A stretch of DNA of 64,000 nt, taken from NCBI GenBank assembly GCA_036172245.1, contig JAYWIR010000060.1:558001-622000 (forward strand). Reading direction: 5' to 3'. The notes below the pieces were generated by a model. That model saw nothing but the letters and a program-made list of their open reading frames with translations, made no database searches and had not been told where the DNA came from. Position 1 is the first letter of the stretch. The number at the start of each line of letters is the position of its first letter. Shown piece after piece: positions 23,500 through 64,000 of this stretch. The stretch is from Raillietiella orientalis. Taxonomy: Eukaryota. A program made the translations under genes and the position numbers.

Positions 23500-24060
23500 C
23501 ACATTTTCAGGCGGTGTTCTGGCACCTACATCTCGGCCGGTAGTTCAAACTGCTCCTGCGGTTGACCTCGTCTGGGATGGCACAATGTTGACCTCTTGAT
23601 TCGCTGCCGGCATCGCCTGGAGCGCCACCAAGTATGGGTCGCTCCTTCATCGGTTGGGTGAAGAAGAGCTGCCCCTTCCCCCTTCGTCGGTTGGTCACCT
23701 TGAACGAGGGCATCTCACCTTGCAAATGACACGTCTAGAGAAGCAAGATGAGGGCGAACATCAAAGTTCCCCGAAGAAGAGAGTGGGCAGGAAGAACCTT
23801 CCTTGCTGCGGTACTGCCTACCCTCCAAGACCATCTAGGCAGTGACATCGCGGCAGAATGGGAGCTTAGCATCAAGATCTCGGTGAGGGAAAAAAAGATC
23901 GGGAATGGAGAACGAGCCAGCTGACCAACGCTGCGACCCCGAGTACCACCCTACACGGACTCTGGCACTGGCGCGAGCTACAGGATGTTTCGGAGGAACA
24001 TCTCAAGTGGTGACGGTGCTCACGTACCCTCCCCATGAAGTGGGAACAGTCGGCACTGCT
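23500..24060 (+). mobile_element. E2: decayed Tx1-like ORF2 fragment, cut at MKWEQSALL by E3
   Basis: Homologous to the reverse complement of the 36538-36900 part of E9 (HLGSDIAA, PMKWEQSALL); left boundary approximate. Confidence 0.75.
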
Positions 24061-24990
24061 TTCACACCCGGGTGAGCCGGGGCGTTTATTTTTGCAAAAA
24101 AAACAAACAAGCATGTGTAGGGTCATTGCTCTTACAGCGTCCGATAGAAACTCTGAACTTGCCGAGTAGCCAGCGCGCAGGTCGGCGAGTTCGACTCTGC
24201 AGCAAAGGGGGAAGGGACAAATAGGAACAAAAAAAAAAACACTATTTAAAAAAGCAGGGAGAAATTGGGGAAGGGATCACGTTCCGCTAAGGTCGTCCTC
24301 TACATCCTTTCGAGGATTCCGGCAAGTTCAGCCCGCATACGTCCCAGATGGGACCATCCGGCTGCAGTCCTCAGGAAGCGCAGGGAGGAGCAGATGGCGT
24401 CCCTATCGTTCGGTCCACCAGTGGCGTTGCTCCAGGCCGCCACAATATCTCGTGGGCTGCAGAGGGCTCCAAGAACCGCAGCAGGCGAAAGGGCGTCGAG
24501 CACAAAGAGGCGCTTCAATACGTCTCTGGGGTTGTTCATGAATGCTCCTAGGGTTGTTGCAAAACGCAACCGCAGAGGTCGGAGGGCAACACAGTCAAGA
24601 ATCAGGTCCGGAAGTGATTCCTGCTCCCCGCATTTGACAAAGTTTGGGTCCAAATGGAGAACATGGGGAGCAGCAGCAGAAGATCGTCCGCATACGACGC
24701 TACGGCCGGTGTACCTGGGCACACGCGCGGCTGGCTACCAAGAGTCTCCCTGTACGCCCTCAGCACCAGCTCGAAAAAGGTTCTGAAAAGCAAGGGACTC
24801 AAGCTGTTGCCCTGACGTGTCTCGCGGCGCATCGGCACATCGAACAGGTTTCATCCGCTGAAACAGAAATTGGTCAGCGCGTCGCGCCAGAAAGAGCTCA
24901 GAAAGGCCATTAAAAAGGCCAAAAATCGCAAGCGCTCTAAAGCTCCAGCAGGAGCTTCTGGTCTACGCAGTCGAGCGATTTGCTCTGCAC
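24061..24990 (-). mobile_element. E3: 5'-truncated, internally deleted Tx1-like element (E8-like)
   Basis: RQGNSLSPLLF..YADDLLLLLPM joined directly to DPNFVKCGEQESLPDL; 3' UTR with family hairpins; 3' end abuts E2. Confidence 0.85.
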
Positions 24991-25004
24991 CGTCTACCTG
25001 CAGC

Positions 25005-25219
25005 ATTTGTGTACGCGGTCCGTAACCAAAGGGCCTATCTACAGACTCGACGTTACGCCAGGACCCCCGACATCTGCAGGATAGCGGAATACAAAGCGGG
25101 AGCCGAGAGGCAAGCTTGGCAATCCGGGTCGGCCAGCTTGCTGGACGAGCAGGGCCGGGAGCATTCGGCTCCTGCTCAGAAGCGCGGGATTGTCCGGAAA
25201 CTTTACTCCTCCCTGTACG
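25005..25219 (+). mobile_element. E4: short ORF2 linker fragment (E9/E12-like), cut by E5
   Basis: RRYARTPDICRIAEYKAGAERQAWQSGSASLLDEQGREHSAPAQKRGIVRKLYSSLY matches the E12 linker. Confidence 0.85.
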
Positions 25220-26866
25220 TTGCCACCCGGTCACGCCGGGGCGTTTAATATAAACTCTTTCTACATTTCATGGTACTAGGCCCCACTACGGCCAACATAA
25301 CAGGACCTGCCGGGTCGCCGGTACGCAGACCGGCGCGACTTTTCTCGGCAGCGTTAGGGGATGGGGGAAAAAACAAAAAGAAAAATAAAACGTAAAAACA
25401 AAAAAAAAAAATTTCGGAGGGATGGGAAGCGATCACTGACCACTGGGAGGAGGGTCCATCCTTTGCAGGATGCCCTCCAGGTCCGTCCGTATAATTCCCA
25501 GGTGGGGCCATCTGGTCGCAATCCGCAGGTAGCGGCATCCCTGTCGTGGCTCGGTCTTCTTACGTCGCTCCAGCACGTCACGATCCCACGTACGCAGCAA
25601 AGTGCAGCCAGGACAGCGGATGGTCGCAGGGTATCCCGCACGAACAGAAGCCGAAAAACGTCTCTGGGCTGGCTGTCCTCCTGGATCCGTAGGGAGGCAC
25701 GAAGACGTTCCCACAGGGCTCGTAGGGCAGCACAATCAACAAGGAGGTAAATAAGGGTTTCCCGCTCCCCACACCTGATGCAGGCAGGATCAACTCGACC
25801 CCTAGTCCAGTGGTAACGTCGTGCGTTGCAGGGTAATCCCCAATGCAACAACAGGAGCGCCGAATCCTGCCACTTCAGGGGGAGCATCCTCGAACCAATG
25901 AATACTAAGGGCCACTTGAGGTCATCCATCGGGATACCGAGCAGCTCGCCCCATTTCTTTAAACCACGCGGGAGGACACTTCGGGTAGTGGCATCGGCCA
26001 GCTGCGCCGTGGTCCAGCCGCTTAACTTCTTCTCTCTGCCTGCGATTCGGCAGTAGACTTGCCACCTAGGCATGCGGCTGCTGGAGAGCGCCCTCCTCAG
26101 GAAGGGCATCGCCGTAGCTAGGGTCGTAGTGTCGGCCCACGCGCACCGGGCGGGAAACTGCAAGAAGGTCCGCAGGCTGTTGCGGGCGCGGTTGTAAAAT
26201 CGCAGGCTGTTGTAGCTTTCTCCACCTTAGGCATTTAACCTCGCCCACGTTCCAAGAGATTCCTCCAGCCATGCGGAGGAGTTGGCGAAGCTGCATACCA
26301 TCCAGCTGTTTACCTTAGCCAGAGTCATGCCATGCGTCCCAGGAGAAGTCCGCATGTCTTGAACTTCACGCCACGGCACAAAAGATAAGACGCGAGACCC
26401 TCCGTCCCGCATGCACATCTGGTAAGGAGTCGGCCCGGAACGCATCAAAGGGTGCTCCACAACTTCGCTGCGATGGCGAGAGTTCGCCATGGCAGCGAAG
26501 GAATGTGGAATGCCATCCCCAACCGCCTTTGCCGGGGTGGACATTGGCAACAAGAGCAGAAGATCGTCGGCGTACGCTGCTACGGCGGGCATGCCGGGGC
26601 ACCAGCTCGGCAGGGGGGCCAAAGTCACCCTGTACGCTCTCAGCAGCAGCTCGAAGTACGTGCTGAAGAGCAGGGGGATTGAGGCTATCTCCCTGGCATA
26701 TGCCCCGCCGTACCGGAACGACGTACACCTTTTGACCGCTGAAAGAGACGGTGATTATCGCATTCCGCCAGCAAGAGTGCAGGTAGGAAATCAGGGAAGG
26801 TGGGGAGCCCATGCGACAAAGGAGCTCCAAGAGGAGTTCCTGGTCCACGCACTCGACCGCCTTGTG
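25220..26866 (-). mobile_element. E5: Tx1-like ORF2 3' half with internal deletion (E13-like) + 3' UTR
   Basis: DQELLLELL..RRGICQGDSL, YADDLLLLLPM, zinc finger CIRCGERETL; family 3' hairpins at 25226-25249 and 25315-25336. Confidence 0.9.
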
Positions 26867-26869
26867 CGC

Positions 26870-28021
26870 TCTAGGGCGGACGTGTTTTCTCGATGCTCCT
26901 CGTGCCAGGAAGTCTCCCCCAGTGTTAGCGTCGTGTGGTTCGGTGGTCGATCAGGCAGCGATGCCTGACGCGACCACCAGGGATGGCCAGGGGGCAGCGG
27001 CAACGTCGCCCCCAGAGGCGATGGAGGTGGGGGCATCCGCCCCCACAGAATCGGTCCCCGCTGCAGCGCGGGCGTGGAGCGCCGTTGTGTCGGCGCCATC
27101 GCCTGCAGCTGCGGCGGAATTGTCGGCCTATGTGGAGGAGGGGTACAACCCGTCATTGTTCTACAAGGTAGGCAACCTTTATTCTTTAGAGAGCGCGCGC
27201 GCCTTCTCGAAGGGCATGCGCGCTCTCGATGTAAAAGAGGAGGAGCTCAGCGCTATGACCATCCGCAGCGGGGGTCAGTACGTTGAGGTCATCTGCAAAC
27301 ATGCAGAGCTGGCCAAACGACTGCTTAAAACCCCCGTGGTGATGGCGACGCGCAGGCTCCTCCCTATTACCGCGGACCGCAGCATGGTGGTCCACCTGTT
27401 AGGTGTTACCGCGCGGATGCGCAAGGAACAGGTTCGCGCCGCGTTGGAGGAATACGGAACGGTCCACGCGCAGTGGACGAAAGTTAGTCCTTTCGAGGAC
27501 TACACGGGGCTGCAACACGGTCTCACGGCTGCGCGCGTGACCGTTCGGGAGGGCTGCACTCTTCCCCACAAACTGGTGGTCGAAGGCGAAACCGTCGACC
27601 TCTGGTATGTGCGGAAGCCGAAATACTGTGGCTTCTGCAATACGTCGGGCCACCTTAAAAAGAGGTGTCCCAATGTGCAGTGCCAAGTATGCGGCACAAT
27701 GGGCCACACGAGGGAGGTGTGCCCTAAAGCAGCAGTGCGGGTGGTTTCCAAGAGAAACCTTAAAAAACGCGCCCGGCTTCTGCAGGAAAGGCTGGCGGCG
27801 AAAGCTGCCGCGAAGGCTGTGCCACCCGCGCCCAAGGCCCAGGCCGCACCCGAGACCCCGGCGAACAACGCCGAACAAGTCGAAAGAACTAGCCAGGAGC
27901 CTGGGTGGCAGGTGGCTACGGCCAAAAAATCAAAGAAGGAGAGGAGGATGGAGAAAAAGCTCGCGTACTGCCAGAAAAAACAGCAGGCACGCGAGCAGAT
28001 AAAAGAATGTAGCGTTGTCGT
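26870..28021 (+). mobile_element. E6: 5' part of Tx1-like element; ORF1 from ATG 26961, cut by E7
   Basis: 5' motif GCGGACGTGT (26876); ORF1 with RRM-like region and knuckles CGFCNTSGHLKKRC, CQVCGTMGHTREVC; homology stops at IKECSVVV. Confidence 0.92.
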
Positions 28022-30990
28022 TTATTACCCGGTTGCGCCGGGACGTTTATTATAATATCAACTGGGAACTGTGTTCCCAGGCAAGGGGAACAGAAAATGG
28101 GGAGTAGATTTCCCAGAACGCAGTCCGGGCACACTGAGAGTTCGGAACGGGAGGGGGTGGGACAATAAATAAATAAATTGGTTGGGAGGGCGGCGACAGG
28201 GGTATACAGTCTAACCGTTCCTATTCTCAGAACCGGCGGTGAATGCCGCCGATCTCCATCCTCACTTCTGCTCCAAGATGTGGCTACCCGGCAGCCATTT
28301 GCAGGTTGCAGGCTGCGGTGTCGGGGACCGATGTTGGGACTCCTCGCATCTGCAATACGTGGCGGGCCCTGACAATGGCGCGGACGCCGCAGATGATTGC
28401 GACGACCGCTCCAAGAGAAAGACCGCCACGCGTCTAGAAGCGGCGCATCCAATCCAGTGCGGTGTGTCCAGGGTGCAGGAGCGCTGAAGACGGCCGCTGC
28501 CACAGCTCCTGGAGGGCACCGCACTCAAACAGCAAATGCGGAAGCGATTCCACCGCTCCGCATTTGGCACAGTTCGGGGACGCAACTCCCCCGGAAATCA
28601 GGTGCGCCCGCTGGTTGCAGTACAAACACCAATGCACCAGCAGAAAAGCGTCCTGTTTCCACCGAAGGGGGAAGAGAGTCGCGTCCAAACACGCAGAAGG
28701 GACCACAAGTTCATCGGTGGGCACCTCGAGGAGCTCACTCCACCGGAGAAGCCCCTATGCAAGAATGCGAGGTGTGGCAGCTTCTGCCACTTCGCAAGTC
28801 CGCCAGCCGCCCAGCAGTCGGGTTTCGCCTGCGATTTCGCAAGTGATCTCCCACCTCGCCGGCAGGTCACTGTCATCTCGCACCATCAGTGCACACAGTG
28901 CTTCGGCGAGTGGCGTAGCGGCTAGGCGTGTCCACTGGTCCTGGTCTTCCAGCACCTCCCCCACTGGAAGGTATGGGGAAAGTTTCACGCAACGGAGTTC
29001 CAAACGGGACACATCCTGTTGCGCTGCCCAGGACGATAAGGCTTCCTGCCTCCAGGCGTTGAAGTTCGTCGGCCGGCAGGAGATCCACTCATGCTTTCCC
29101 AGAAGCTTGGCGAGCTGCTTCAAAGGGAAGCCGAATCCTCTCTGGGCGCGCTCCGTGCGCAGATGCAACGAACGTAGTCCGTCGCCACCCGTGTAGCGCC
29201 GCAGCAGCAGCCGCGCTGGAGCACACCAGGGAGTAGTCCAGAGCTGCGCACAAAGTGCCAGCATGCGGAACTGCACTAGCAGTCCGACCCGCTCCAGAAT
29301 CAGGATGCCCAATCTTGCATCCCGCCGAGGAGCCGCCAAGTCCTTCAGGCGGATCCTGGACCTCACCGGTCCCCACAGGGCGTTACGCAACAGGCGTTGC
29401 GCCCGGCGCTTAGCCGAGTAGAAAGGGGGACAAACAAAAAAGAGGGGACGGAGGAGGGGGGCAACGAAAATGTTTCACACGAAGGCCCGTTCCGACAGGA
29501 GAAACCTGCCGCCTTGGAACCGGCCCAGAGCAGTCTCGGCCTTCTGAAGGCAGTCCGACCACGCTTCTGCTAGACAGAAGGCGCCCAAGGGAACGCCGAG
29601 GTACTTCAAGCACCTGCCCGTAGGGATCCCCAGGCGGATCCAGTCGGACTGCCCCTCCCACGTAGAGCCAACCGGTACAACGGTTGATTTCGTCCTGTTG
29701 ACGCTCAGGCCCGCTCCCCGACGAACGAGCTCGAAGAAGTCCTCGAGCCTGGACGCCGGGGTGGACATGGGCAGCAGCAGGAGAAGGTCGTCAGCATAGG
29801 CGGCCACGGCCGGTGTTCCCGGGCAGGAGCTCGGCAGGTTGGCCAGCGTCAGCCTGTACGCCCTCAGCACCAACTCAAAGAAGATGCTGAAGAGCAGGGG
29901 GCTTAAGCTGTCTCCCTGCCTGATACCCCTCCGTATGGGTATGCCGTACACGTGGCGCCCGCTGAAAGGGATACAGCATAATGCGTGACGCCAGCAGGAG
30001 CGCAAGTAGGCGATGAGGTGCGTCGGGAGGTCTAGGCGTCCCAGAAGCTCCAGAAGGAGGTCCTGGTTTACGCTGTCGAACGCTTTGCAGAGATCGACGG
30101 CGACCGCTAAGGCTCCCGGCGTTCCATCGTGCCTTGAACACCGCCGCTTACCTTTGGCAGCGGCGATTTCGGCTGCCTGGCTCTGCTGCGCCACGCGCTG
30201 CTGCAACTCGAACCATGTTCGCGCGAAGAAGAGATTCGCGTCCATGGACCGCCCCGGAACAGCATACGTCTGCTCCGGACTTACCAAGGACTCCACGATT
30301 CTCCCCAGGCGCGCGACCCATAGCCTGGAGAACAACTTGACGTCCGAATTCACCAAGGTGATCGGACGCCAGTTGCTGAGGTGGTGCAAATCACCGCCTT
30401 TCGGCAGGAGCCGCACCTTTGCTGAGCGGAAAGAAGCGGGAACATCTCCCGTCTCACGCATCAGCGAGGAAAGGCTTAGCACCAGGGGGACGAGCTATGC
30501 CGCGAAGCACTGAAAGAACTCCGCGGGCAGGCCATTCTCCCCAGGCGCCTTACGCCTCTTGAGGCCCGCTATGGCGGAAGATACTTATTCCGCCGTGAAG
30601 GGCCAATCCAATCTGGCGCGTTCCTCCTCGTCGATAGCAGGGTTGCCCGTCGGAAGAAGCAGCTCGGAGAGACTGCGTTCCGTGGGCTCCTCCACGTACA
30701 ACGAGGAGTAGTAGCGCTTGACTACGCGGTGTACTTCGACTGCAGTCGAGCATTCCTGGACAGCGTCATCGAGCAGACAAGCCGCTCCAGACTGCCAAAC
30801 CTGGCTCTCGGCCCTGGCCTTGTACTCCGCCAGAGGCCGGACGGCCGGGCATCGGGAGAAGGTACGCGCCGGCAGATAGGATCTGCTATTCGCGACACCC
30901 TCCCCGAAGCCGCGGGGAAGCAGGTGCAAGGGAAACCGGCAGCAGAACTCGCGGACCGATCTTTTCAGATCGTCCCAGTCCTCGAGCGAG
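28022..30990 (-). mobile_element. E7: Tx1-like ORF2 (linker-RT-zinc finger, frameshifted) + 3' UTR
   Basis: LLPKGGDL..NWRPITL, VDLCKAFDSV, GIRQGDSLSPLLF, YADDL, KYLGV; ORF2 end near 28227; family 3' terminus at 28022-28051. Confidence 0.93.
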
Positions 30991-31090
30991 AGGGGACGGG
31001 TTTTTGTTTTGCTCTTGAGCGTTTGTAAATTTATTTTTTTTTTCTTTTTTTTGTTGGTGTGCCAGTGGATTCGGTGGTGGCTAGGCAGCA

Positions 31091-32717
31091 ATGCCTGGGA
31101 CCACCACCAATGTTAAGGAGGAGGCGACGTCTATGTCGCCTCCTGAATCAATGGATGTGGGGGCAACCGCCCCCACAGAAGCGACTCCCTCGCTAGGGAG
31201 AAGCTGGAGTTCCGTGGCTGCGGCGCCAACGCAAGCGGCTGCGGCTGAGTTAAAAGCCTACCTGGAGGAGGGGTACAATCCCCCTCTACTCTACAAGGTA
31301 GGCAACCTTTACTCCTTTGAGAGTGCTCGCGCTTTCTCGAAAGCGATGCACTCCCTCAAAGTACCACAGAAGGAGCTCTTGGCGATGACCATCAGGAGTG
31401 GTGGACAGTACGTTGAGGTGATTTGCAAAGAAGCAAGTCTTGCCCAGCGTCTTCTCCGTACACCTGTTCCTTTAGGGAATCGCCGGCTCCTCCCCATCAC
31501 GGAGGATAGATCTATCGTGATCCACCTTCTCGGAATCACCTTCCGGATGGCCGAAGAGGCTGTCCGAAAGGAACTAATTAAATTTGGGACTGTCCACGCG
31601 TTGTGGATAAGGCCGACTCCGTTTTGGGACTACGATCTCCTGAATTGCGGTGTGGCTTCCGCGCGCATCACGGTCCGCGAGGGTTGCTCTCTACCTAACA
31701 AGCTGGAGGTCAACGGCGAACCCGTTGACATCTGGTATGTCGGTAGGCCGCATTTCTGCGGGCATTACAGTACTTCAGGTCACCTAAAAAAAATGTGCCC
31801 TCACTTGCAGTGCAAGCAATGCAAGCAACCCAAGCACACTCTTCCAGTGTGCCCGCAAAATGAAGTCCGCGTCGCGTCCGCACGGAATGCGAAGAAGCGC
31901 GCGGCGAGAAAAAGAAGAGTTTAGGCAGCCCGAGAGAGAGCCGCCGCTCGTAAAACAACTGTCGTGCCCCAGGTGAAGGTCAGCTCCGAGATCTTGGAAA
32001 ACTCGGACAAGGTCGAGGAGAACGGCCAGGAACCTGGATGGCAGGCAGTAAAATCCAAGAGGCAGAAAAGCCTCAAGGAAGCAAAAAAAACTGTCGCGAA
32101 ACGCAGCGAGAATTTGCCGCGTCGCGAAAATATCAAACGCTGCTCTGTCGTCATCAAGCGCATTCCTGCGGTCGAAAAGAGTGGCAAAATTGCACTCGTC
32201 GCTGCCGACTTTCAGCCCTCCGGCAAATTAATGCCGGAGGCTATCGACCCGGCGGTGGCGTCCGTCGTCGAACGCATGCTCGACGACGTCGCCTTTGAGC
32301 GAGCGGCGGAGGAGCTCGCTACGTCCTTGCAGCGTCCCCTTAAATCCGCGAAAAAGGCCTTAAGGCGTCCGACCTCGATCAAGAAGTCTCAGATTCCGAA
32401 CTCTGACGCAGAGGCGGAAAACACAGCCTGCGGCATAGCGGCCTCCCGCCCGAAGGCCAATCGCACGAAGAAGGCTACCCGCAAAATCATCCCGTCCGTG
32501 GAAAAGGGAGAGATAATTGAGGGAAGCGAGCGTGCCAATAAAGTAGGGAACTGGGGACTGTCCTCGAGAGGTCACCTCACGCTGCGACCCCGGAGGGAGG
32601 GAAAGGGTAGAGTCTGTGCCCCAGGTGCTTCAAGTGCCTGAGATGGCCGCGGTCCCCTTACTCGTCCCTCCCATCTGTCCGTTGACAGGTGCTGCAACGT
32701 CACGTTTCCAGCCTTAA
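31091..32717 (+). pseudogene. E8 ORF1 (gag-like RRM + CCHC knuckles), premature stop and frameshift
   Basis: ORFs 31091..31924 and 31964..32641 are in the same frame, separated by TAG at 31922. The family-type stop TAA at 32715-32717 lies in another frame. Confidence 0.9.
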
Positions 32718-35700: not shown

Positions 35701-36290
35701 AAGAACAAGGTGGTTGGACCACGGGTCAGCTTGCTGATGCCGCGATCCCAAGTTCCCCACCGAGAGGACTGTTGCGCTGGGGCGAGCTGCTGTGCATCCC
35801 GCGGGATGAACTCGAGTGGCCCCCAGTGCTGAGGAATACTCGGGCCCTCCCCCTAAAGTGGCAGGAGTCGGCGTTTCTGGTGTTGCACTGGGGTCTCCCC
35901 AGCAACGCCCGACGCTCTTATTGGACGAGGGGGGTTGTGGACCCAAACTGTGTCAGGTGCGGGGAACGAGAAACTCTCCCGCACCTGCTCGTTGACTGTG
36001 TTGCCCTCCGGCCCCTGTGGTTGCGCTTTGCAACAGCCGTTGGTGCACCCTTGCACGCTCCCAGAGACGTTTTAAAGCGCCTCTTCGTGCGCGACGCCAT
36101 TTCGCCTGCCGCAGCCCTTGCAGCCCTCTGCTGCCTACGAGGGATTGTAGCGGCTTGGAGCACCGCCACTGGTGGACCGAACGATAGGGACATCTTGTGC
36201 TACGCCCTGCGCTTCCTGAGGACGGCAGCCAGATGGACCCATCTGGGACACATGCAGTTCGAACTTGCCGGCATCCTGCAAGGGATGTAG
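32717..36290 (+). pseudogene. E8 ORF2 (APE endonuclease + reverse transcriptase + zinc finger), disrupted
   Basis: IACWNVNG, LQEIH, NVYAP, AGDFN, SDH; RT QGDSLSP, YADD; CVRCGERETLPHLLVDC. Stop at 33107 and frameshifts near 33720-33980. Confidence 0.93.
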
Positions 36291-36537
36291 AGGACGTCTC
36301 CAGCGGAACGTGATCCCTTCCCCAACCCCTCCCTGCCTTTGTGAATAGTGTTTTCTTTTTGCTTTTTTTCTATTTGTCCCTTCCCCCTCCGCTGCCGAGT
36401 CGACCTTGGGAGCCTGCGTGCTGCCCACTCGGCGAGTTCAGAAGAACATGTTCTGAACACTGTAGGGGCGATAGCCCTACACTTGCTTGTTTATTTTTTA
36501 TTAAAGAAAGAAACGCCCCAACGCACCCTGGTGTAAA

Positions 36538-39518: not shown

Positions 39519-39635
39519 CGTACAGTGCAGACGTGTTTCCGCGTCTATCCGCGCCAACGATCGGGCAACTTTGTGCCTGCGTTTTTGCTCGAACTTGTGT
39601 GTTCCTGTGCAATCTGCCAAGTAGCATAGTGCAAC

Positions 39636-40916: not shown

Positions 40917-41015
40917 TTTTTCTATAAAAATACAAAATTTACATTCGCACTCTCATTCACTCAAGACAAACATTTTGTAGTTGGGGGTCCTTGGGTTGCA
41001 CTAGAGTTCTGCTTT

Positions 41016-50728: not shown

Positions 50729-51082
50729 GAACGGCGTAATCCGGTGACCCCTGCGACCTCTCGCCCACCCATACCCCGTCCCCGTTCGCTCGGTAAAATT
50801 TCCGGTGCCCATGCTTTTATCCGCGTGTCTTCCAGAGCGATCCCAAAGACCCTTATCCCGTCCTCCTTATTCATTGTTTTTATTTTATTTTGGTTTCGTT
50901 GTGTTTCCCACCCCCCCCACACCGTTCAAGAAACTGTTACTCTGGCCTGCGTGCCAGCAATATTCTCTTCATTCTTGTTCAGTTGTCGGTTAGGAGTTTG
51001 GTTCCCAACTGGTTTATTTTGTATAATTGCTTTTTTTCGTTATGTTATATGGAATAAACGCCCCGGCGTCACCGGGTGAGAA

Positions 51083-52977: not shown

Positions 52978-53205
52978 CTCCGGAATCTCCATTGAAACCC
53001 GGGTGCGCCGGGACGTTTATTCTAACGAATAAACTTATACAATCTGTGACTGGACCAGTAGTCCAGCCACGCCCTGGAAAGATATAGCCTGCCGGGCTAC
53101 CAGTGCGCAGACCGGCGCGGTCGACCTCGGCAGCAGAGGGGAGGGGGAACGAAACAAAAAGAAAACAAAAAAATAAACAAAAATCAGGGAGGGAGCGGGA
53201 AAGGA

Positions 53206-56200
53206 TCACAGTCTGCTGGGAGGGCCCGTCATCCTCTGGAGGATGCCGGCAAGCTGTTTCTGCTTGTGTGGTTCCAGATGGGGCCATCGCGTCGCCATCC
53301 TGAGGAAACGGGCGGCATACACGTTGGCATCCCTGTCGCTGGATCCTCCCGTCGCTTTGCTCCATGCCACGACGATCCCGCGTAGGCAGCACAGGGCTGC
53401 AAGCGAGGCCACTGGAGGCAGGGCGTCACGGACGAAAAGGGGGCGCAAGGTGTCTCTGGGGTTGCCTTCGGGGATCCCCAGGGCTGCGGCAAAGCGTTTC
53501 CACAAGGGACGGAGGGCAACCCAATCCACTAACAGGTGGGGGAGGTATTCCCTCTCCCCGCACCTGACACAATTAGGGTTGACAGCCCCCCGCGTGCAGT
53601 GGTGTCGGCGGGCGTTGCAAGGAAGCCCCAAATTCAACACCAGCAGTGCCGACTGTTCCCACTTCATGGGGAGGGTGCGCGAGTCCATGAGCACCGGGGG
53701 CCACTCGAGATGTTCCTCTGGAAGATCCAGTAGCTCTTGCCAGCGCGACAGTCCATTTGGGGTGGTCCTCGGGGTAGCATCGTTGGTGAGCTGATCCGTT
53801 CTCCAATCCCCGATCTTCTTTGCCCTGCTGGCGATCTTGACAGTAACCTCCCATTGTGCCGTGACGTCGCTGCCCAGATGTCATCGTAGGGTAGGCAGTA
53901 CCGCAGCAAGGGAGTTTTTTTGTGCCAACGCTCTCCTTCGGGGATACTCGATTTCTCGGAGCGTGCGGTGGGCATGCGGCCCAAACAGAGCTGTTCGCTC
54001 GTGTTGCGGGCTCTGCTCCTGAATCATCGCCCACGTACGGACGGTTTCCTGCAACCAGGCAGGACCGTTCGCGAAGCGTACGAGAATCCGCGCCGAGTTG
54101 TTCTTCACGAGCTTGGCCGCCCTCCGAAGATGAAGTCAGCAGTGGCAGATGGGGCTTCGGAGTGCAAAGTAGGACGACAGTCCCGCATTGCCATTGGCCC
54201 GCTCGAAGAGAAGATGTGCAGGGAGGCACCAAGAGTGCACCAATTTTCTGCCATAAAGGCAACAACTCGGAACTGGAGCTGTAGCTCCAGCCGCTCCAAC
54301 GTCAGGAGGCCCAGACCACTATCCCGAAGAGGAGCGCACAAGTCCGAAAGACGGACTCGGGGCCGCCCTCTGTCCCAATGGGCCATCCTCAGGAGGTCCT
54401 TCGTCCTCTTCTTTGACTCCGCTAAGGGGGAACAAACAAAAAGCAAGGGGCGAAGGAGGGAGGCCGCAAACGCGTTTCACGCCGCGGCCCGTTTCTGCAG
54501 GTAGCACCTGCCGTCCTGGAACGGGCCGATCGCCGCCTGAGACTTCTGAAGGCAGCCCGACCACGCTTCCGCAGGGGAGTAGTCCCCCAACGGCACACCC
54601 AGTTACTTGAAGTACCTCACCGTGGGGATCCCCAAACGGACCCAATCCTGCTGCCCTGCCCACGCCGCTCCGACTGGCATTACGGACGACTTCGCCCTGT
54701 TCACCGTCAGTCCTGTTCCCCGACTCAGCAGGTCGAAGAACTCCTCGACCGCCGCAGCCGGGGTGGACATAGGCAGCAGCAGCAGAAGGTCGTCCGCGTA
54801 CGCCGAAACCGCAGGCGTACCGGGACAGTCGCACGGCAGGTGCGCCAGAGTCTCCCTGTACGCTCTCAGCACCAATTCGAAATAGGCGCTGGAGAGCAAG
54901 GGGCTGAGGCTGTCTCCCTGCCGTATGCCGCGTCGCACCGGTACGCCGTACACGGTGGATCCACTAAAAAAAACATTAATAAGCGCGTCGCGCCAGCTGG
55001 AGCGCAGGTAGGCCAGCATAGAGGCCGGGAAGCCCAAGCGTTCCAGAAGCTCCAAAAGGAGATTCTGGTCGACGCAATCGAATGCTTCATGCAAATCGAC
55101 TGCGACCGCGAGGGCTACTCTCCCCTCCCGAGCATCCCGTCCCCCACCGACGGACGCACCGGAATTACGGTTGCCTATTATGCTCCTTCCTTGTTGGAGC
55201 TCTAACCATGTGGAAGCGTGGAACAGGTTCGCCTCCATACTTCGCCCGGGAACAGCATATGTCTGTTCCGAGCTGATGAAGATGTTGGCGACCCGTCCCA
55301 GGCGCTCTGCCCACAGCTTGGCTAGCAACTTGGCGTCCGCATTCACTGTTGTGATGAGACGCCATTTGTTCATGCTCCTTAGGTCTCCTCCCTTCGGGAG
55401 GAGCCGCACCTTTGCTGAACGAAACGAGGTGGGAACGTCACCTGTTTCACGGATCAGCAAGGTGAGCTGATGTACCAGGGGAGTAAGCTCAGCCGCGAAA
55501 GTTTGGTAAAACTCCGCGGGCAGGCCGTCCTCCCCTGGAGCCTTCCGCCTCTTGAGCTTTCCGCTGGCCGAGAGGATCTCGTCCATCGTGAAAGGCTCGT
55601 CGAGGCTTCTTTTCTCCTCCTCCCCGATCGCTGGAGCACCTTCCGGAAGCAGAAGTCGTGAGACGTCTCGCTCCGGAGGCGCCCTGGCGTACAGGGAGGA
55701 GTAAAATTTTCTTACTATCCCGCGTTTCTGAGCGGGAACCGAGTGCTCCCGGCCCTGGTCGTCCAGCAAGCTGGCCGATCCGGATTGCCAGGCTTGCCTC
55801 TCGGCTCCCGCTCGGTACTCTGCTAACCTGCGCATGTCGGGGGTTCTCGCGTAACGTCGGGCCTGAAGATAGCACCTTTCGTTACGCGGCCCCTCCCCAA
55901 AACCCGCAGGTAGGCGATGCAGGGGGAACTGATCGCAGAACTCCTGGACCGACCGCTTGAAGCGGTCCCAGTCCTGAAGTGTCTGCATCCTGAAGCTTCG
56001 AATAAACGCGCGGAGGTGCTCCGCCGCGTCGGGAAACTTCAGCCAGTCCCCTGGCAGACGCCACGCTGACGAGGGGGGGCCCTTGTCGCGCAAACGCACT
56101 TCGAACATGATCCGACCATGGTCCGACAGCTCGGATGGTACCTTGCCGCGCCTGCCCACCCGAGAGCATAGGTGCTGATCAAGGTTACATGATCGATGCT

Positions 56201-56779
56201 GCTTACCATGGCCGTGTCCCCGGCCAACAAGTTGCACGTCATTTCATTTCTGCGCACAACTCGTTGACGCGGTCGTTCGGTGTAACCGGCGCGCCCCTGA
56301 AAGCGGAGGCGCAGGTTGAAATCTTGCGGTCAACTGCGTGCCATTGCATCGGTCAGCCAATCGCGTCTCCGGACAAGGTAGAACTCCCTTCTTGCCTTCG
56401 CCCTCAACGCGGCGTTTCCGCTAGGAGCGTATAGGTTGGTGACGACCAGGTCGATAGAGTCGGACCAGCTGAGAGTCAGCTGACCGACGCGACCTCAGTC
56501 ATCGCACCGAACGTCCTTTATTGCGGTCTCTATGGCTGGCCTAAGCAGGAAGGCGACACCGCTTGATTTCGCGGTGCCGCAACGCCACAACAGCCGTCCA
56601 CCGGAGATCCGTTCGATATCCCGGACTTCATCTGCGGAGATCACGTGGATCCCCTGCAGCAGCACCAGGTAGAAGGATGCCAGAGTGGCGGCCACGTCAC
56701 GCATCTTGCCGTCGTCGCTTAGCCCGTTCACGTTCCAACAGGCGATCAGAAGACGACGGCGAGAGGCGATTCCCGGCAT
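53206..56779 (-). pseudogene. E12 ORF2 (APE + RT + zinc finger), disrupted
   Basis: ORFs 56495..56779, 54603..56237 (QGDSLSP, YADD), 54105..54446 and 53206..53694 (CVRCGEREYLPHLL). Confidence 0.92.
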
Positions 56780-58437
56780 TATGGCTGGGAAAGTGGCGTC
56801 GCGGCACCTGCCGCGGGGCAGGTGTAGGAAAGGTCCATCGGTACGAGGACCATCGGAACGAGGACGGAGGCCTCTTCAGGCGCCTGGGGTACCTGTTCGG
56901 CCTCCATCCTCACCATCCCCTCCGTGTCCGAGCGTGGAATTCTCTCGGGCGACGGGTCCCGGGAGTTTCTCACGCTCATGGCACCCTCGCTACCGGAAGC
57001 CATCTCTTCCCCTTCGTCGGGGGAGACGATCTTCCGGGGCATTGTGGACTTTCGTCCTGCCTTTTTGCGGGGTGCCGCGGAGATGGATGCTGTTTTTCCG
57101 GCCTTCACCTCGGGGTCGGAAGTGGCCGACTCCTGAGGGGAAGCCGGACGCCTGACGGCCTTCTTGCCAGCCTTGGGGGCAACCGGCTGCAGCGAGGCAG
57201 CCAGCTCCTCCGCGGCGCGCTCGAAGGCGACGTCATCGAGCGTGGGCTCGATGACGGACGCCGCCGCCTCGCTCCCCTCCTTGTTGACTTTGTCAACGGA
57301 GGGCTGAGCAGGGGCAGCAGCGAGTTCTTTAGCGCCGCATCCGTCGATGGCGGGAATCCGCTCTACAACGACGCAGCAGCTTTTAATTTTTTCGCGGCGC
57401 AGAGCGGTTTCGCTCCGTTTCGCCACGTTCTTTCCCTTCTTATGGGAGTTTTTCTTGGGGTCGACCTTGTGCCACCCTGGCTCTTGAACCTCGCCCTCGA
57501 CCTTTTCGGCGTTTTTCGCCGAAGTCTCGGGGCTGGCCTTCGCCTTGGTGACGGAGGTGACTCCCTTAGCAGCAGCACGAGCTGCCAGCTTCTTCCTTTT
57601 TTTAGCCGCGCGCTTTCTCGCGTTTTTCGCGGACACGACGCGGACTGTGTTTTGTGGGCACACCAGACGGGTGTGCCCCGCTTGTTTGCATTGCTGGCAC
57701 TGCACGCTCGGACACCTCATTTTAAGGTGACCAAAGCTGCTGCAGCAGCCGCAAAACTTGGGTTTCCCCACGTACCACACGTCAACGGATTCACCGTTGA
57801 CGGTGAGTTTGTGGGGAATCTCACATCCCTCGCGAACCGTCACTCGCGCTGCACCCAGGCCGCCAAGCAACCCGTCGTAATCGACAAAAGGAGTAGGCTT
57901 GCCCCACAGCGCGTGGACAGTTGCGAATTTTCCAAATTCGTTCCGGACGGCCTCCTTCGTCATCCGGAACGTGATACCGGTCAGGTGAATGTTCACCGAC
58001 CGGTCTTCTGTTATTGGGAGAAGCCTCCGGCTGCCCATACTTACGGGGGTTCGCCGAAGTCTCTGCGCAAGAGTTGCCTCCTTGCAGATAACTTCCACAA
58101 ATTGACCCCCGCTTCTGACGGACATAGCCAGAAGCTCCTCTTTTTGTACACCGAGAGCGCGCATCGCCTGCGAAAAGGCGCGCGCGTTCTCGGGAGAATA
58201 TAAACCGCCTACCTTATATAGAAGGGGTGGGTTATACCCCTCCTCCAGGTAAGCGCGCATTTCCGCCATAGCCGCTGGCGTAGGTGCCGCAGCCACGGCG
58301 TTCCAAGCCCTGGGTAGGGCCGGGGGCGCATCCGTGCTGGCGGGAGCCTCCACTGATGCGGGAGCCCCCACCTCCATCTCCTCCGGGGGCAATGAGGTCA
58401 TCACTCCCGGATCCTCACCGGTGGTGGTATCAGGCAT
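56779..58437 (-). CDS. E12 ORF1: intact gag-like protein (552 aa)
   Basis: Open frame with RRM-like region and knuckles CGCCSSFGHLKMRC, CQQCKQAGHTRLVC; its TAA overlaps the ORF2 ATG. Confidence 0.95.
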   Translation of the reverse strand: MPDTTTGEDPGVMTSLPPEEMEVGAPASVEAPASTDAPPALPRAWNAVAAAPTPAAMAEMRAYLEEGYNPPLLYKVGGLYSPENARAFSQAMRALGVQKEELLAMSVRSGGQFVEVICKEATLAQRLRRTPVSMGSRRLLPITEDRSVNIHLTGITFRMTKEAVRNEFGKFATVHALWGKPTPFVDYDGLLGGLGAARVTVREGCEIPHKLTVNGESVDVWYVGKPKFCGCCSSFGHLKMRCPSVQCQQCKQAGHTRLVCPQNTVRVVSAKNARKRAAKKRKKLAARAAAKGVTSVTKAKASPETSAKNAEKVEGEVQEPGWHKVDPKKNSHKKGKNVAKRSETALRREKIKSCCVVVERIPAIDGCGAKELAAAPAQPSVDKVNKEGSEAAASVIEPTLDDVAFERAAEELAASLQPVAPKAGKKAVRRPASPQESATSDPEVKAGKTASISAAPRKKAGRKSTMPRKIVSPDEGEEMASGSEGAMSVRNSRDPSPERIPRSDTEGMVRMEAEQVPQAPEEASVLVPMVLVPMDLSYTCPAAGAATPLSQP

Positions 58438-58522
58438 TGCTGCCTAATCCTCCACCCACACCACGCACAAGCACCAACGGAAATGGAACTCAGGAGCAAC
58501 GAAAAGACACGTTCGCTCGACG

Positions 58523-61500
58523 CTCCGGAATCTCCAAGACTGGGACCTTTTTAAGGAATCGGTCTGGGAGTTCTGCGAGCAGTTCCCCCTGGACCGCCTG
58601 CCCGCCGGATTCGGCGAGGGTCCTCGCAACCATCGGGCCTATTTACAGGCCCGTAGGTACGAGCGAACCTCTAATGTCCGTCGCCTCGCCGAGTACCGAG
58701 CCGGGGCCGAACTCCAAGCCTGGCAATCCGGGTCGGCCAGCTTGCTGGCCGACCAGGGCCGGGAATGTTCGTCCCCGGCGTCGGTACGGCATCTCGTGCG
58801 GAGTTTTTATTCCTCCCTTTACGCCAGGGAGCCCCCGGATCAAAACGCCTCTAAGCGCTTGCTTCCGGATGGCGCCCCGGCAATAGGGGTGGAGGAGATG
58901 GAAAGCCTCGACGAGCCTTTCACCACCGGCGAAATTCTCGTCGGTATCAAAAGGCTGAAGAGGCGTAAAGCTCCAGGGGAAGACGGCTTGCCCGCGGAGT
59001 TGTTTCAGAGCTTCGCGGAAGAGCTGGCACCCCTGCTGCTTAAGTTGATCAGGCTGATCTGAGAGTAAGGCGATGTTCTCGCCTCGTTTCGTTCAGCGAG
59101 AGTGAGGCTCCTTCCGAGAGGGGGAGACCTCAGGGATTTAAAGAACTGGCGTCCGATCACGATCCTGAATACGGACGTTAAGTTGATAGCAGGGCTATGC
59201 ACTTCGCCTCTGGGGCAGGTGGCAGAACCCGTAATTAGCCCGGAGCAGACTTATGCTGTTCCCGGGCGAAGTATGGATGCCAACCTATTGTTCGCAAGCA
59301 CATGGGTGCACCTGCAGAGAAGAGAAAAGAAAGGGATAGGGAAAGTCGGCAACCCCACATTGGGGCAACCAGCCGGGCTGGGAAAGGAACCCCGGGCGGG
59401 GAAGGGGGCCCTAGCGCTCGCAGTCGACCTCCACAAGGCGTTCGACTGTGTAGACCAGGAACTCCTCTTGGAGCTCCTGGGTCGCTTGGGCTTCCCACCG
59501 TCCCTGATTTCCTACCTGTGCTCTTGCTGGCGGAAAGCGATGATTACCGTCTCTTTCAGCAGTCAAAAGGTGTATGGCGTGCCGGTGCGGCGGGGCATAA
59601 GGCAGGGAGATAGCCTCAGCCCGTTGCTCTTCAGCACCTACTTTGAGTTGGTGCTAAGAGCGTACAGGGTGACTTTGGCCCCATTGCCGAGCTCGTGCCC
59701 CGGCACGCCCGCCGTAGCAGCGTACGCCGAGGATCTGCTTTTGTTGCCAATGTCAACCCCGGCGAAGGCGGTCGGAGACTTCTTCGATCTGCTCAGCCGC
59801 GGAACCGGACTGCAGTTTAACAGGGCGAAGTCGTCGGTTGTGCCAATAGGTGCGGAGTGGGCAGAACAGCAGGACTGGGTCCGTCCGGGGATCCCCACGG
59901 CGAGTTGCTTCAAGTACCTTGGTGTGCCGTTGGGGGACTACTCCCCTGCGGAAGCGTGGTCCAGCTGCCTCCAAAAAGTCGAGACGGCAATCGGCCCGTT
60001 CCTGGAAGGCAAGTATCACCTGCCGGAACGGGCCGCGGTTTGGAACGCCTTCGCGGCCCCCATCCTCCGCCCCTTGCTTTTTGTTTGCCCCCCCACCGTG
60101 GAATCCAAGAAGAGGACGAAGGACCTCCTCCGTATCGCCCTTTGGGGCAAGGGGAGGCCCCGAGTCTCACTGAAGGACTTGTGCGCTCCGCGTCGGGACG
60201 ACGGTCTTGGCCTCCTGACGCTGGAGCGCGTGGAGAAGCAGCTGCGGTGGCGAACCCTCGCCATCGCAGCGAAGTTGTGGAGCACCCCTTGGTGCACTCC
60301 GGCCCGCCTTCTGGCCAGCCGTGTGTCACGGTGCGATGGACTCGCGTCTTTTCTTCTGAGCCGTGGCCGGAAGATGCGAAGATGCGGCCTACTGCTCGGG
60401 CGCATGGCAACATTGGCCAAGGAGAACAGCTGGATGGTTTGCTGCCCCGCCAACTCCCCCGCCTGGCTGCAGGAGAATATTGGAACGTGGGCAGTAGTTA
60501 ACCGGAAAAGCCACGAGACGTGGAATCGTCTCCGATGCAGCCCCTACGCCCGCTGCACGCTGCGGAATCTCCTGGAGAGTCCAGCAAGATGCACGTGGGC
60601 AGAGACGACCTGCCTAGCTACGGCGCTGCCTTTCCTAAGGAGGGCACTTCACAGCACCCGGACGCCAAGGTGGCAAGTCTCCTGTTGCATCGAGGGACGC
60701 GAGAAGTTGGTCAGCGGCTGGACAACAGGAGAACTGGCCGACGCCACGACCCTGAGCGTCCAGCCGCGAGGATTATAAAGAAGGGGCGAGCTGCTCGCCA
60801 TCCCCATGGATGAGCTGAAGTGGCCCCCGATGATGAAAGAATTTAGGATCCTGCCCCTAAAGTGGCAAGAGTCGGCGTTGCTTTTGTTGCACTGGGGTCT
60901 ACCCTGCAACGCGCGCCGCTTCCACTGGACGAGGGGAGCTGTGGATCCTGCGTGTGCCAGGTGCGGGGAGCGGGAGTCGCTTCCCCACCTTATTGTGGAT
61001 TGTGCTGCCCTCCGACTCCTTTGGGAACGGTTCGGGACGACCCTCGGGCTCCCTACAGGCAGCACCCCCAGAGTCGTTCTTCAACCCCTCTTCGTGAAGG
61101 ACGCACTGCAACCAGCCGCAGCCATCGCAGCCTTGTGCTGCGTCCGTGGCATCGTGGCGGCATGGAGCGACGCCAACAACGAAGGAGTGGGTCCAAAGGT
61201 GAGGGATGTCATCCCATACGCCCAACGCTTCATGCGGAGAGCTGCCGGATGGCCGCAACTGTGGTATATCCGGACGAACCTCGAGGGCTTCCTTCAACGG
61301 ATGGGCCCTCCTCACAGCGTTTTGTGATCCCTTCTCTGCCCTCCAACTTCTTTTTGTCTGTTAATTTTTTATTTTTCTTTTTGTTTTATCCCCATCCCCC
61401 TTCGCTGCTGAGGAACGCTACGCTGGGCTGCGTCCCGCCGTCCTGGCAGGTACAGTGTATATGGCCGTGAGCAGGGCCTTGTACCGCGGATCTAGAGTTT

Positions 61501-61534
61501 TACCAATAGACGCCCCGGGCGTACCCGGGTGTAA
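58523..61534 (+). mobile_element. E13: Tx1-like ORF2 from linker to end + 3' UTR (host of E9/E12)
   Basis: Starts LRNLQDWDLFK; PGEDGLP, NWRPITILN, QGDSLSP, YAED, CARCGERESLPHL; ORF2 ends 61327; terminus AATAGACGCCCCGGGCGTACCCGGGTG. Confidence 0.93.
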
Positions 61535-62081
61535 GCCTCCAAGGCTGGCAAGAAGGCCGAAAGGCGTCTGGCCTTTCCTCAGGAATCCCGCACTTCCGAC
61601 CCCGAGGTGGAGGCCAGAAGCGCAGCTTCCGTTTCCATGGCACCCTGCAAGAAGACTGGACGTAAGTCCACAAAGAAGAGGAGGCTCGTCTCCCCCGTCG
61701 AGGGGTAAGAAATGGATTCCGCAAGCGAGGGTGCCATGAGCGTGGGAAACTAGCGGGACCCGTCGTCCGAGAGACTCCCACGCGCGGACACGGAGGGGAT
61801 GGATGGGGTGGAGGCCAAACAGGTGCCTCAGGTGCCTGAGAAGGCCAAAACCCCCATGGACATCCCTCCCGCCTCGCAAGAGGCGGGCTCCTCCTCACCG
61901 TAATCTTCCCAGCAGTAATGCCGGGACTCTCCTTCCGCCGTCGTCTGCGTATCGCCGTTTGGAACGTGAACGGCATGACAGATGCCGGCCGGAGACGAGA
62001 CATGGCCGCCCTTCTGGGGTCCTACGACCTTGCGCTGCTGCAGGAGATCCACTTTATCTGTGCAGAACAAGCGCAAGAGAT
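61535..62081 (+). mobile_element. E14: fragment spanning ORF1 C-terminus and ORF2 start, cut by E15
   Basis: KAGKKAERR..TSDPEV homologous to the E12 ORF1 tail; TAATG at 61916-61920; MPGLSFRRRLRIAVWNVNG..LQEIH. Confidence 0.9.
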
Positions 62082-64000
62082 TTCTCGCCTGTCACGCAGG
62101 GGCGTTCATTCCATATAACATAAACAAAAAAACAATTCTACAAAATAAACCAGCTGGGAACCGAACTCCCATCCAACGACTCAACAAGAATGAAGAGAAT
62201 ATTGCTGGCACGCAGGCCAGAGTAACAATTTTGCGAACGGTGTAGGGGGGGCAGGGAACACAAAGAAACCAAAATAAAATAAAAACAATGAATAAGGAGG
62301 AAGGAATAAGGGTCTTTGGAATCGCTCTGGAAGACACGGGGATAGAAGCATGGGCACCGGAAATTTTACCGAGCGTACGGGGACGGGGTATGGGTGGGCG
62401 AGAGGTCGCAGGGGTCACCGGATTACGCCGTTCTCAAAGGTTTTTAAACCGGCGATGTATGCCGGTGATGTCCTCATTCACCTTGTCACGAAGATGAGAC
62501 CACCTTGAAGCTTTCTCCATGAATTGAGCTGCAAGCAGGTGAGCCTCCCTTCGCTGCGCTGACAACTTCAGGGCGTAGCGGGCCTTCACGATGGCGCGAA
62601 CGCAACACATGGTTGCGACAATCGCGCTAACCGAAAGTCCATTTCTGCTGAAGAAGCGCCGCAGCACATCAATGGCAGTGCCTCCTTGTGGCATGATGGC
62701 CGAAGTGAGCCTTCGCCACAGTTCCCGGAGGTCACCGCAGTCCAGCAAAAGGTGCGGAAAAGACTCGATCTATCCGCACCTTAAACAGTTTGGCAAGGCA
62801 GCTCCCCCGGAAACGATGCTTCGCTGCCTATTACAGTGTAATGCACAATGTAAAAACAGCAGCACATCTTGTTTCCACTTTAGGGGGAACACGGAGCTGT
62901 CCAAACAAACGGGGGGAACCACTATCTCTACGGGGGGCACACTGAAATGTTCGCTCCACCGAAGCAGACCCTTCGCCCGATTCCGAGGAGTGGCGACTTG
63001 CACCAGATCCTTTGTCGTCCAGCTGCCGAGTAGCTTACTGACTCCCGCTATTTTGCAGGAGAACTTCCATTCCGCCGGTAGGCAACCGTCGTTGCTTGCC
63101 CTGAGGGCAGACAGCGCTGCGGCGAGTGGTGTGGCGGCCAGACGATCCGACAACTTCTTGTCCTGCATGACTTCGTCCATTTGATGACTGAGGAGAAGTC
63201 GCAGGCGTCGAAGATGTTCCAAGCGCGTTCCTTCGGAAGCTGCCCACGATGAAAAAGATTCCTGCCGCCATGCATCTATGTTCATGGGGCGGCATGAGAT
63301 CCAGCTTTGGGCTTCCAGCAGTGAGGACAGCTGCCTCAGCGGGAAGCCAAACCCTATTCTGGTGTGCCGAAAGTGGGGTAGCAACGAAAGCAGTCCCTCG
63401 CTTCCCGTGCAGCGCCTCAGGATAAGGCGTGCGGGTAAGCACCACGGCGTACACCACAGCTTGGCACAGAGCCGCAGCATGCGGAACTGCACCTGCAGTT
63501 CGATGCTGTTTAAGTCGAGGATGCCCAAGCCTGCATCCTGACGCGGCGCCACGAAATCTGTAAGTCTAACACGGGATCTTGCAGCGCCCCACAACGCTTT
63601 GCGTAGAAGACGCTGCGCCCAGACTTTGACTTCCTGGTAGGGTGGACAAACAAAAAACAGGGGGCGGAGGAGGGGGGCAACGAAGGTGTTCCAGATGTAG
63701 GCCCGTTCCGGCAAGACGAACTCGCCTCCTGAAAACGGGACAAGTGCACGTTCTGCCTTCCGAAGGCAGTCCGACCACGCTTCTATGATGCAGATGTCGC
63801 CCAACGGCACGCCAAGGTACCTGAGGTACCTGCCCGTGGGGATCCCCAGGTCGATCCAGTCGGACTGCCCCTCCCACGTCGCACCCACCGGAACAACCAT
63901 ACACTTACTCCTGTTAACGCTCACGCCCGCACCGCGACGAATCAACTCAAAGAAGCCTTCAAGCGATGTCGCCGGGGTGGACATGGGCAACAGGAGAAGC
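62082..64000 (-). mobile_element. E15: E10-family element (3' UTR + ORF2 C-terminal half), runs off the window
   Basis: ORF 62770..63990 is about 95% identical (by eye) to E10 ORF 48995..50728; same 3' UTR. Confidence 0.95.

Follow-up and report, generated by a model that had tools for sequence, protein, structure and literature searches.

A nest of related non-LTR retrotransposons inserted into one another, mostly antisense and repeatedly at the same host positions

Results

The window analysed here is a stretch of 64,000 nucleotides from Raillietiella orientalis (assembly GCA_036172245.1, contig JAYWIR010000060.1, positions 558,001 to 622,000). Its right-hand part, from 23768 to 64000, is a nest of retrotransposons lacking long terminal repeats (non-LTR elements) that have inserted into one another. 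Sixteen element fragments, from elements encoding an apurinic/apyrimidinic-type endonuclease (APE) and a reverse transcriptase (RT), cover this region except for ~40 bases; the gaps without assignment are 24653-24660, 24975-24984 and 26497-26515. Fragments were delimited by tblastn with the open reading frames (ORFs) of one element, C, by self-blastn and by blastn with references cut from the window itself: A (52992-58536, minus strand), B (39520-40917 joined to 46507-51082), C, and D (30991-36537). Throughout, host sites are numbered by their position along the A reference (A coordinates). Pfam searches identified pieces of Exo_endo_phos (APE), RVT_1, zf-RVT and a zf-CCHC ORF1 on both strands between 24 and 64 kb, and the elements are ~90% coding. 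GC content is 0.49-0.66 per 2-kb window over the whole stretch and ~0.53-0.62 within the nest.

At least six lineages are present in the nest. Five of them (A, B, D, E and F) have a 3' hairpin motif in common, and the sixth, C, is intact and distant. A 315-nt RT segment found in eight copies allows the lineages to be told apart, with identities of 96% for A1/A2, 86% for D/f3, 88% for F/f5, 77% for B/E and 68-80% for the remaining pairs. An initial annotation, made from the sequence alone, had described the region as consisting only of related elements. This description fits most fragments; however, tblastn with the C proteins recovered 22 further pieces at merely 22-40% amino-acid identity in local matches, so the remaining elements are distant from C.

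Relatives are the location of 13 of the 15 element boundaries examined, in agreement with the earlier proposal that these families use one another as targets; the other two, at 1358 and 23768, lie in unrelated DNA. The 16 fragments represent a nest of mutually inserted relatives, as initially described, with 13 insertions, and all of the junctions listed in that annotation are real to within a few bases. The head-to-tail junction between A1 and A2 (52991/52992) is an addition to that list. Motif-bearing 3' termini adjoin inner positions of opposite-strand relatives at 24061/2, 25220/1, 28021/2, 36537/8, 51082/3 and 62082/3, and the A-rich 3' end of C adjoins an inner position of opposite-strand B at 40917/8. 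According to the identity matrix, insert and host belong to different lineages in all 13 cases. Furthermore, targeting is reciprocal: A has inserted into D and D into A, and A has inserted into F and F into A.

Insertions into relatives are antisense to the host in 12 of 13 cases when A1 and A2 are counted separately (two-sided binomial p = 0.0034). The 11 of 12 counted in the initial annotation also depart from 50:50 within the window (two-sided binomial p = 0.0063), and 61534/5 is, as stated there, the sole sense case. Absolute strand is even (8 plus and 7 minus elements, with G counted and f2/f3 taken as one copy), showing that the bias is relative to the host and not to the chromosome. A replication-direction bias has been reported for L1. 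An effect of this kind, acting on one strand along the whole chromosome, does not explain a bias that, as here, switches direction with the host.

Four host positions were used repeatedly, and each independently: A coordinates ~1921, 2558, 3456 and 4895. The events match to the nucleotide at 1921 and 4895, and within 3-6 nt at 2558 and 3456. When 12 random events were simulated on 5545 positions, the chance of at least four coincident site pairs within 6 nt was p = 9.5e-5. Site 1921 falls in the endonuclease region, site 3456 at the "KAFD" motif of the RT and site 4895 in the C-terminal domain.

At site 1921, B and a second B copy, B2, both terminate after host ...GAGAT. Identity is 94-96% between the inserts but just 76-77% between the flanking host sequences. 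Inserts that are so much closer than their hosts indicate that a young lineage entered two diverged hosts in separate events. The public sequencing run X1 (described below) offers a third, weak case of one contig and 17 letters, in which a flank containing ATCTCCGCC comes after a B-type 3' end. The site itself varies: A2, which has no insert here (~56616), reads GATAT, both B-bearing hosts (A1 at 51083 and the host at 62082) read GAGAT, and B itself reads GAAAT. These variants hint that GAGAT may matter for B and that B may spare itself.

At site 4895, D in A1 and f2 in f1 adjoin the identical host nucleotide (...GGCACTGCT^). The D-in-A1 junction is younger than A1, and f1 is far diverged from both A1 and A2 (79-80% identity, as against 94-95% between A1 and A2), so the f1/f2 junction is no duplicate of the A1/D junction. 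This argument assumes a roughly even divergence clock. Mutation of the kind caused by repeat-induced point mutation (RIP), which would distort such a clock, was considered and rejected, as transitions and transversions are about equally frequent. At site 2558, A2 and D, each with a full-length 5' end, adjoin F and E, respectively, at homologous positions 5-6 nt apart. At site 3456, the 5'-truncated f4 and the full-length H adjoin f3 and f5 within ~3 nt.

Exact direct repeats surround all three inserts for which both ends are visible. B is flanked by the 12-bp repeat ATCTCCCGGGCT (39507-39518 and 51083-51094), C by the 7-bp repeat AAGTTCA (40910-40916 and 46500-46506), and A2 by the 13-bp repeat TCCGGAATCTCCA (52979-52991 and 58524-58536). 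These target-site duplications (TSDs), the 5'-truncated f4 and a conserved 3' terminal motif on nine ends are hallmarks of target-primed reverse transcription (TPRT). Partial copies other than f4 were taken as interrupted hosts. From outer to inner, the order of the left nest is f1 > f2/f3 > f4 > f5 > H > E > D; that of the right nest is A-like fragment > F > A1/A2, then A1 > B > C. The two halves join inside D. H (26867-28021) and the A-like fragment (61535-62082) have no coordinates in common and could be two parts of one element. Twin priming was considered for the four head-to-head junctions and ruled out for three of them, at which the two sides overlap in coordinates or differ in lineage; the f5/H junction, where coordinates do not overlap, is the exception.

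C is the sole intact element, with stop-free frames of 588 and 1227 codons that span ORF1 and ORF2, and may still be active. Its ORF2 matches PF03372 (E 7e-18) and PF00078 (E 4e-31), and its top solved-structure match is human L1 ORF2p (E 7e-51), compared to E 9e-27 for R2. A zf-CCHC domain was detected in the ORF1 of both C (E 5e-5) and B (E 1.5e-4), while pieces of RVT_1, Exo_endo_phos and zf-RVT are present in the A, B, D, E and F copies. The combination of an APE, an RT, a CCHC-bearing ORF1 and L1 ORF2p as the top structure match supports classification of the nest elements as L1-superfamily, APE-type long interspersed nuclear elements (LINEs). A tandem repeat of 27-48 nt lies in the 5' part of C ORF1 (46034-46245).

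Close relatives were rare in protein searches. In a full HMMER search, P0009 (73%) and P0052 (66%) were the only close matches, and word-index searches returned P0009 at 73% and otherwise matches of 20-31%. The nearest named matches are unclassified proteins of turtle, Closterium and pseudoscorpion (these three at 30-38% identity) and of fish, and a search of the ESM Atlas returned generic APE+RT clusters.

Nine 3' ends are of the hairpin type, eight of them within 23.5-64 kb and the ninth at 1358. They carry the motif AATAAACGYCCCGGCG..ACCCGGGTG followed by 3-4 nt, without poly(A), and RNAalifold folds this motif into a 5-bp stem with one compensatory pair. The 3' end of C has an A-rich tail without the hairpin motif. 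We also compared 5' ends (26867-26890 for H, 30988-31010 for D, 39520-39545 for B, and 58500-58523 on the minus strand for A). In A, B and H, whose 5' ends are complete, G(A/C)CGTGT(T/C)TT lies ~10-20 nt from the terminus, and D carries GACGGGTTTTT in its place. This shared motif may be a conserved initiator or internal-promoter element.

Of the words sampled from 36001-46000, 45% occur in run X1. Its sequence departs from the window by a few percent, which makes it a related strain or copy set. Results for X1 cover the pieces and loose ends that were listed, 17 out of 555 and 9 out of 255, respectively. Both C/B junctions are spanned by X1 contigs (record 2, 40574-41168; record 5, 46214-46731), and the empty B site, as in A2, is seen in one contig, where 39506 is linked to 51083 through an overlap of 12 letters. 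Summed contig depth is ~40-80 over C and ~10-30 over A and B (C being ~3-5 times A/B); while contig depth is a poor measure of copy number, these values suggest that the element families are low-copy. Also in X1, four joints labelled "opposite strands", one of them 48479/55510, were rejected as junctions: they lie near homologous B/A positions and were taken as cross-lineage mapping. Two further runs, X2 and X3, contributed almost no coverage.

Table 1. Element fragments and insertion events in the window. Sites are A coordinates unless stated; orientation is that of the insert relative to its host.
Feature	Position	Strand	Host site	Orientation	Description
G	1..1358	+			Hairpin-type element of which the window start leaves the 3' part; ~4221-5451 in D/A coordinates (blastn, tblastn)
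f1	23768..24061	+			A-lineage, A coordinates 4593-4895, 79-80% to A1/A2; outermost left host, broken at 4895
f2	24062..24652	-	4895	antisense	D-lineage 3' end, 80% to D, hairpin motif; in f1
f3	24661..24974	-			D-lineage RT fragment, 86% to D; broken at 3456; probably one copy with f2, from which ~1.2 kb has been lost internally relative to D (24652/24661)
f4	24985..25220	+	3456	antisense	A-lineage, coordinates 2615-2849, 83%, 5'-truncated; in f3, broken at 2849
f5	25221..26866	-	2849	antisense	F-lineage 3' part with hairpin motif, 71-88% to F; in f4, broken at 3456; internal deletion of ~0.46 kb relative to F (26496/26516)
H	26867..28021	+	3456	antisense	Full 5' end and ORF1 region; in f5, broken at ~1178
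E	28022..30990	-	~1178	antisense	B-related (73% over 2.6 kb), 3' hairpin to coordinate ~2558; in H, broken at 2558
D	30991..36537	+			Full length, 5547 bp, degenerate ORFs; 5' end at E site 2558, 3' end at A1 site 4895
A1, 3'-ward part	36538..39518	-			A coordinates 4895 down to 1910; 94% to A2
B, 5' part	39520..40917	+	1921	antisense	5' end, ORF1 with CCHC; in A1
C	40918..46499	-	B coordinate 1398	antisense	Intact element; in B ORF1
B, 3' part	46500..51082	+			Endonuclease, RT, 3' hairpin with terminus at 51082
A1, 5' part	51083..52991	-			A coordinates 1921 down to 1; includes 13-bp repeat 52979-52991
A2	52992..58523	-			Full-length A element, head-to-tail with A1
F	58524..61534	+	1357	sense	Coordinate ~2558 to 3' hairpin; hosts A1/A2 at 2558; in A-like fragment
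A-like host fragment	61535..62082	+			Coordinates 1357-1921, 75-77% to A1/A2; host of a sense insert (F, at 1357) and of an antisense one (B2, at 1921)
B2	62083..64000	-	1921	antisense	Another B copy (96% to B), of which the window end leaves the 3' part
Event 1, f2 in f1	24061/2	- in +	4895	antisense	
Event 2, f4 in f3	24974-85	+ in -	3456	antisense	
Event 3, f5 in f4	25220/1	- in +	2849	antisense	
Event 4, H in f5	26866/7	+ in -	3456	antisense	
Event 5, E in H	28021/2	- in +	~1178	antisense	
Event 6, D in E	30990/1	+ in -	2558	antisense	
Event 7, D in A1	36537/8	+ in -	4895	antisense	
Event 8, B in A1	39519 and 51082/3	+ in -	1921	antisense	
Event 9, C in B	40917/8 and 46499/500	- in +	B coordinate 1398	antisense	
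Events 10 and 11, A1 and A2 in F	58523-36	- in +	2558	antisense	
Event 12, F in A-like fragment	61534/5	+ in +	1357	sense	Sole sense case
Event 13, B2 in A-like fragment	62082/3	- in +	1921	antisense	

Discussion

Recurrence at a few positions, together with the near-constant backward orientation, points to targeted rather than random insertion. We consider it likely, with a probability of about 65%, that the nest is the product of target-preferring TPRT by several related LINE lineages at a few defined sites in their relatives. The nest would then have been built by successive TPRT of low-copy, related lineages of the L1 superfamily (A, B, D, E, F and the distant C), which would integrate preferentially into copies of other lineages in the same group, at ~1921, 2558, 3456 and 4895. 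In TPRT, an insert that is antisense to its host means that the host sense strand gave the priming 3'-OH. Under the TPRT model, the nicked strand would be the host sense strand, and at nearly all positions a first nick there would yield an antisense insert; the insertion geometry agrees with the initial annotation on this point. The A1-A2 tandem could reflect re-use of a site regenerated by target-site duplication. By analogy with site-specific LINEs, we infer that recognition is protein-based, such that the ORF2 protein, through its endonuclease or DNA-binding surfaces, would recognise the target DNA asymmetrically and thereby fix both site and strand.

Several points weigh against target-preferring TPRT. 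The evidence base is one window with 13 events. All insertions at a given site share one orientation, so the antisense rule should be judged on distinct sites, of which 7 of 8 are antisense (two-sided p = 0.07), rather than on 11 of 12 trials treated as independent. No common nick-site motif was found by eye across the eight sites. Moreover, two lineages appear to have used two sites each (A at 2558 and 3456, D at 2558 and 4895), unlike a classical one-site endonuclease. Targeting is not restricted to relatives: DNA unlike the family adjoins G at its 3' end (1358) and f1 at its 5' boundary (23768). Where the 5' end of A stops and the 13-bp repeat starts was judged from ~70%-level homology of F to its relatives and from comparison with the 5' end of H. 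Finally, D has E as the host at its 5' flank, A1 as the host at its 3' flank and no TSD. These unmatched flanks require an extra event, which we infer to be either unequal recombination between two same-strand D copies with loss of the intervening DNA, or assembly collapse.

It is also possible, though unlikely, that the state of the host copy imposes the strand: in a transcribed or R-looped copy, the exposed non-template strand would be nicked, or transcription-coupled repair would remove TPRT intermediates on the template strand. This would account for a nick on the host sense strand at all recurrent sites and for a bias that is host-relative while absolute orientation is even. Sharing of sites by different inserting lineages (A and D at 2558, an A-like element and H at 3456) would likewise be expected of a host-determined hot spot. 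The antisense bias of human L1 in transcribed genes is ascribed to transcription-coupled repair (PMC5717806). However, recurrence to the exact nucleotide in hosts that are 76-80% identical is easier to obtain by protein-DNA recognition than by R-loop edges, and the insertion at 61534/5 is cleanly sense. Nor are the target sites in outstandingly conserved stretches (percentiles 0.18-0.92 of three-way nucleotide conservation at seven sites), which lends no particular support to homology-guided R-loops. We regard a broader scenario as doubtful: a guild of LINE lineages would integrate at defined sites in each other's ORFs, always priming on the rival's coding strand, whether exposed by transcription or an R-loop or read by evolved proteins. 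The lineages would thereby disable competitors and gain a safe harbour, with convergent transcription that could feed silencing and a centromere-like island of transposable elements (TEs) as the outcome. If true, this would be retrotransposon-against-retrotransposon targeting, beyond simple self-nesting.

An absence of targeting is quite improbable. In that case the nest would be a recombination-poor graveyard, in heterochromatin or at a centromere, with passive build-up of elements, and the shared sites and antisense excess would be due to chance or to a short endonuclease motif. TE-rich islands are common, elements that are ~90% coding are expected to receive insertions in coding regions anyway, and two boundaries do lie in unrelated DNA. 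In addition, human TE-in-TE insertions have hot spots genome-wide without dedicated targeting (PMC2836564). Against this stand four site coincidences within 6 nt among 12 events (p ~1e-4) and the orientation bias (12/13 antisense, p = 0.0034). The human L1-in-L1 bias, moreover, runs the opposite way, at 2.2:1 sense (PMC2836564, Table 3). If the X1 depths are near single-copy, the families are low-copy, and 13 mutual insertions in 40 kb would be hard to reach passively. Rearrangement in place of insertion, by inversions, segmental duplications, twin-priming inversions or assembly chimeras between repeats, is highly improbable. The flanks of D, which come from different hosts without a TSD, the internal deletions in the old nested copies f2/f3 and f5, and the proneness of repeat-rich regions to misassembly are compatible with it. 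However, exact element termini are joined to non-homologous inner positions, three inserts have TSDs, and the divergence of insert and host differs. Both C/B junctions are also bridged by independent X1 contigs.

The nest is best described as a variant form of LINE behaviour, target-specific or self-nesting, that is already known, such as Zepp/ZeppL clusters and Tx1L-type site specificity. In green algae, Zepp and ZeppL form nested, self-targeting clusters of L1-type elements that mark putative centromeres (PMC3446292, PMC8226300, PMC9940879, PMC11005252, bioRxiv 10.1101/2025.03.28.645958). Zepp (Chlorella/Coccomyxa) and ZeppL (Chlamydomonas) resemble the nest in being L1-superfamily LINEs that target existing copies and form nested clusters, the elements being GC-rich in each. 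In contrast to one family inserting into itself, the nest comprises several lineages, 65-80% related, that insert into each other, and its 3' ends have a stem-loop motif without poly(A), unlike those of Zepp/ZeppL. Furthermore, Zepp/ZeppL arrays consist mainly of 5'-truncated 3' ends (PMC8226300), whereas in the nest four elements (D, A2, B and C) are of full length and two more (H and A1) have an intact 5' end. The consulted parts of the Zepp/ZeppL reports cited above make no mention of an antisense rule or of nucleotide-fixed sites within ORFs. No chlorophyte occurs among the seven named matches of the 20 best protein matches.

Tx1L reportedly inserts into the Tx1D DNA transposon. The nest is similar in that an APE-type LINE occupies a fixed site in another mobile element in a fixed orientation, but differs in that its targets are the coding regions of related LINEs, at several sites and reciprocally between lineages. 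Like the R1/R2 LINEs of ribosomal DNA, the nest elements show independent events at the same nucleotide, fixed orientation, short TSDs and site re-use leading to tandem copies; here, however, the target is competing retrotransposons and not a multicopy gene of the host, and 2 of the 15 boundaries are in unrelated DNA. Human L1 elements also bear comparison as regards a bias at insertion relative to the transcribed unit (PMC5717806) and hot spots in host TEs (PMC2836564). The human L1-in-L1 ratio of 2.2:1 sense in the latter differs from the 12 of 13 antisense insertions seen here at nucleotide-exact sites.

Target-specific LINEs and self-nesting L1 clusters are known. In the literature searched and consulted, we did not encounter related LINE lineages that insert into one another reciprocally, almost always antisense, at a small shared set of nucleotides within ORFs, although such a case may have been published. 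If the pattern proves to be genome-wide, the nest would provide a natural system for how APE-type LINEs gain and change target specificity, for the dependence of TPRT strand choice on target transcription, and for the way in which islands made up of TEs alone, algal-type centromeres among them, are assembled. In addition, it would illustrate how retrotransposon lineages can compete by acting directly on their rivals' genes.

Flanking DNA and additional observations

A metagenome scan with the 3' motif TAAACGYCCCGGCNNNNCCGGGT returned 32 loci, none of which (0/32) was similar to the elements by blastn or tblastn. We therefore rejected them as family copies; they have the appearance of conserved bacterial loci.

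Left of the nest, at the very start of the window, the terminal motif of G (...AATAAACGACCCGAAGTACCCGGGAGAGAA) ends at 1358 and adjoins DNA without similarity to the family. Between 1 and 23.8 kb, no Pfam match was found in 109 ORFs, nor any Rfam family or tRNA, and the long ORFs have R/P/G/S-rich translations that are non-coding in appearance. The 23 kb left of the nest is probably non-genic, repeat-rich DNA too. Repeats in this part of the window are 3839-4305 with 13624-14090, 8242-8677 with 11987-11550, and 10408-11039; the kinds represented are a 93% direct repeat, a 97% inverted repeat and a weak palindrome.

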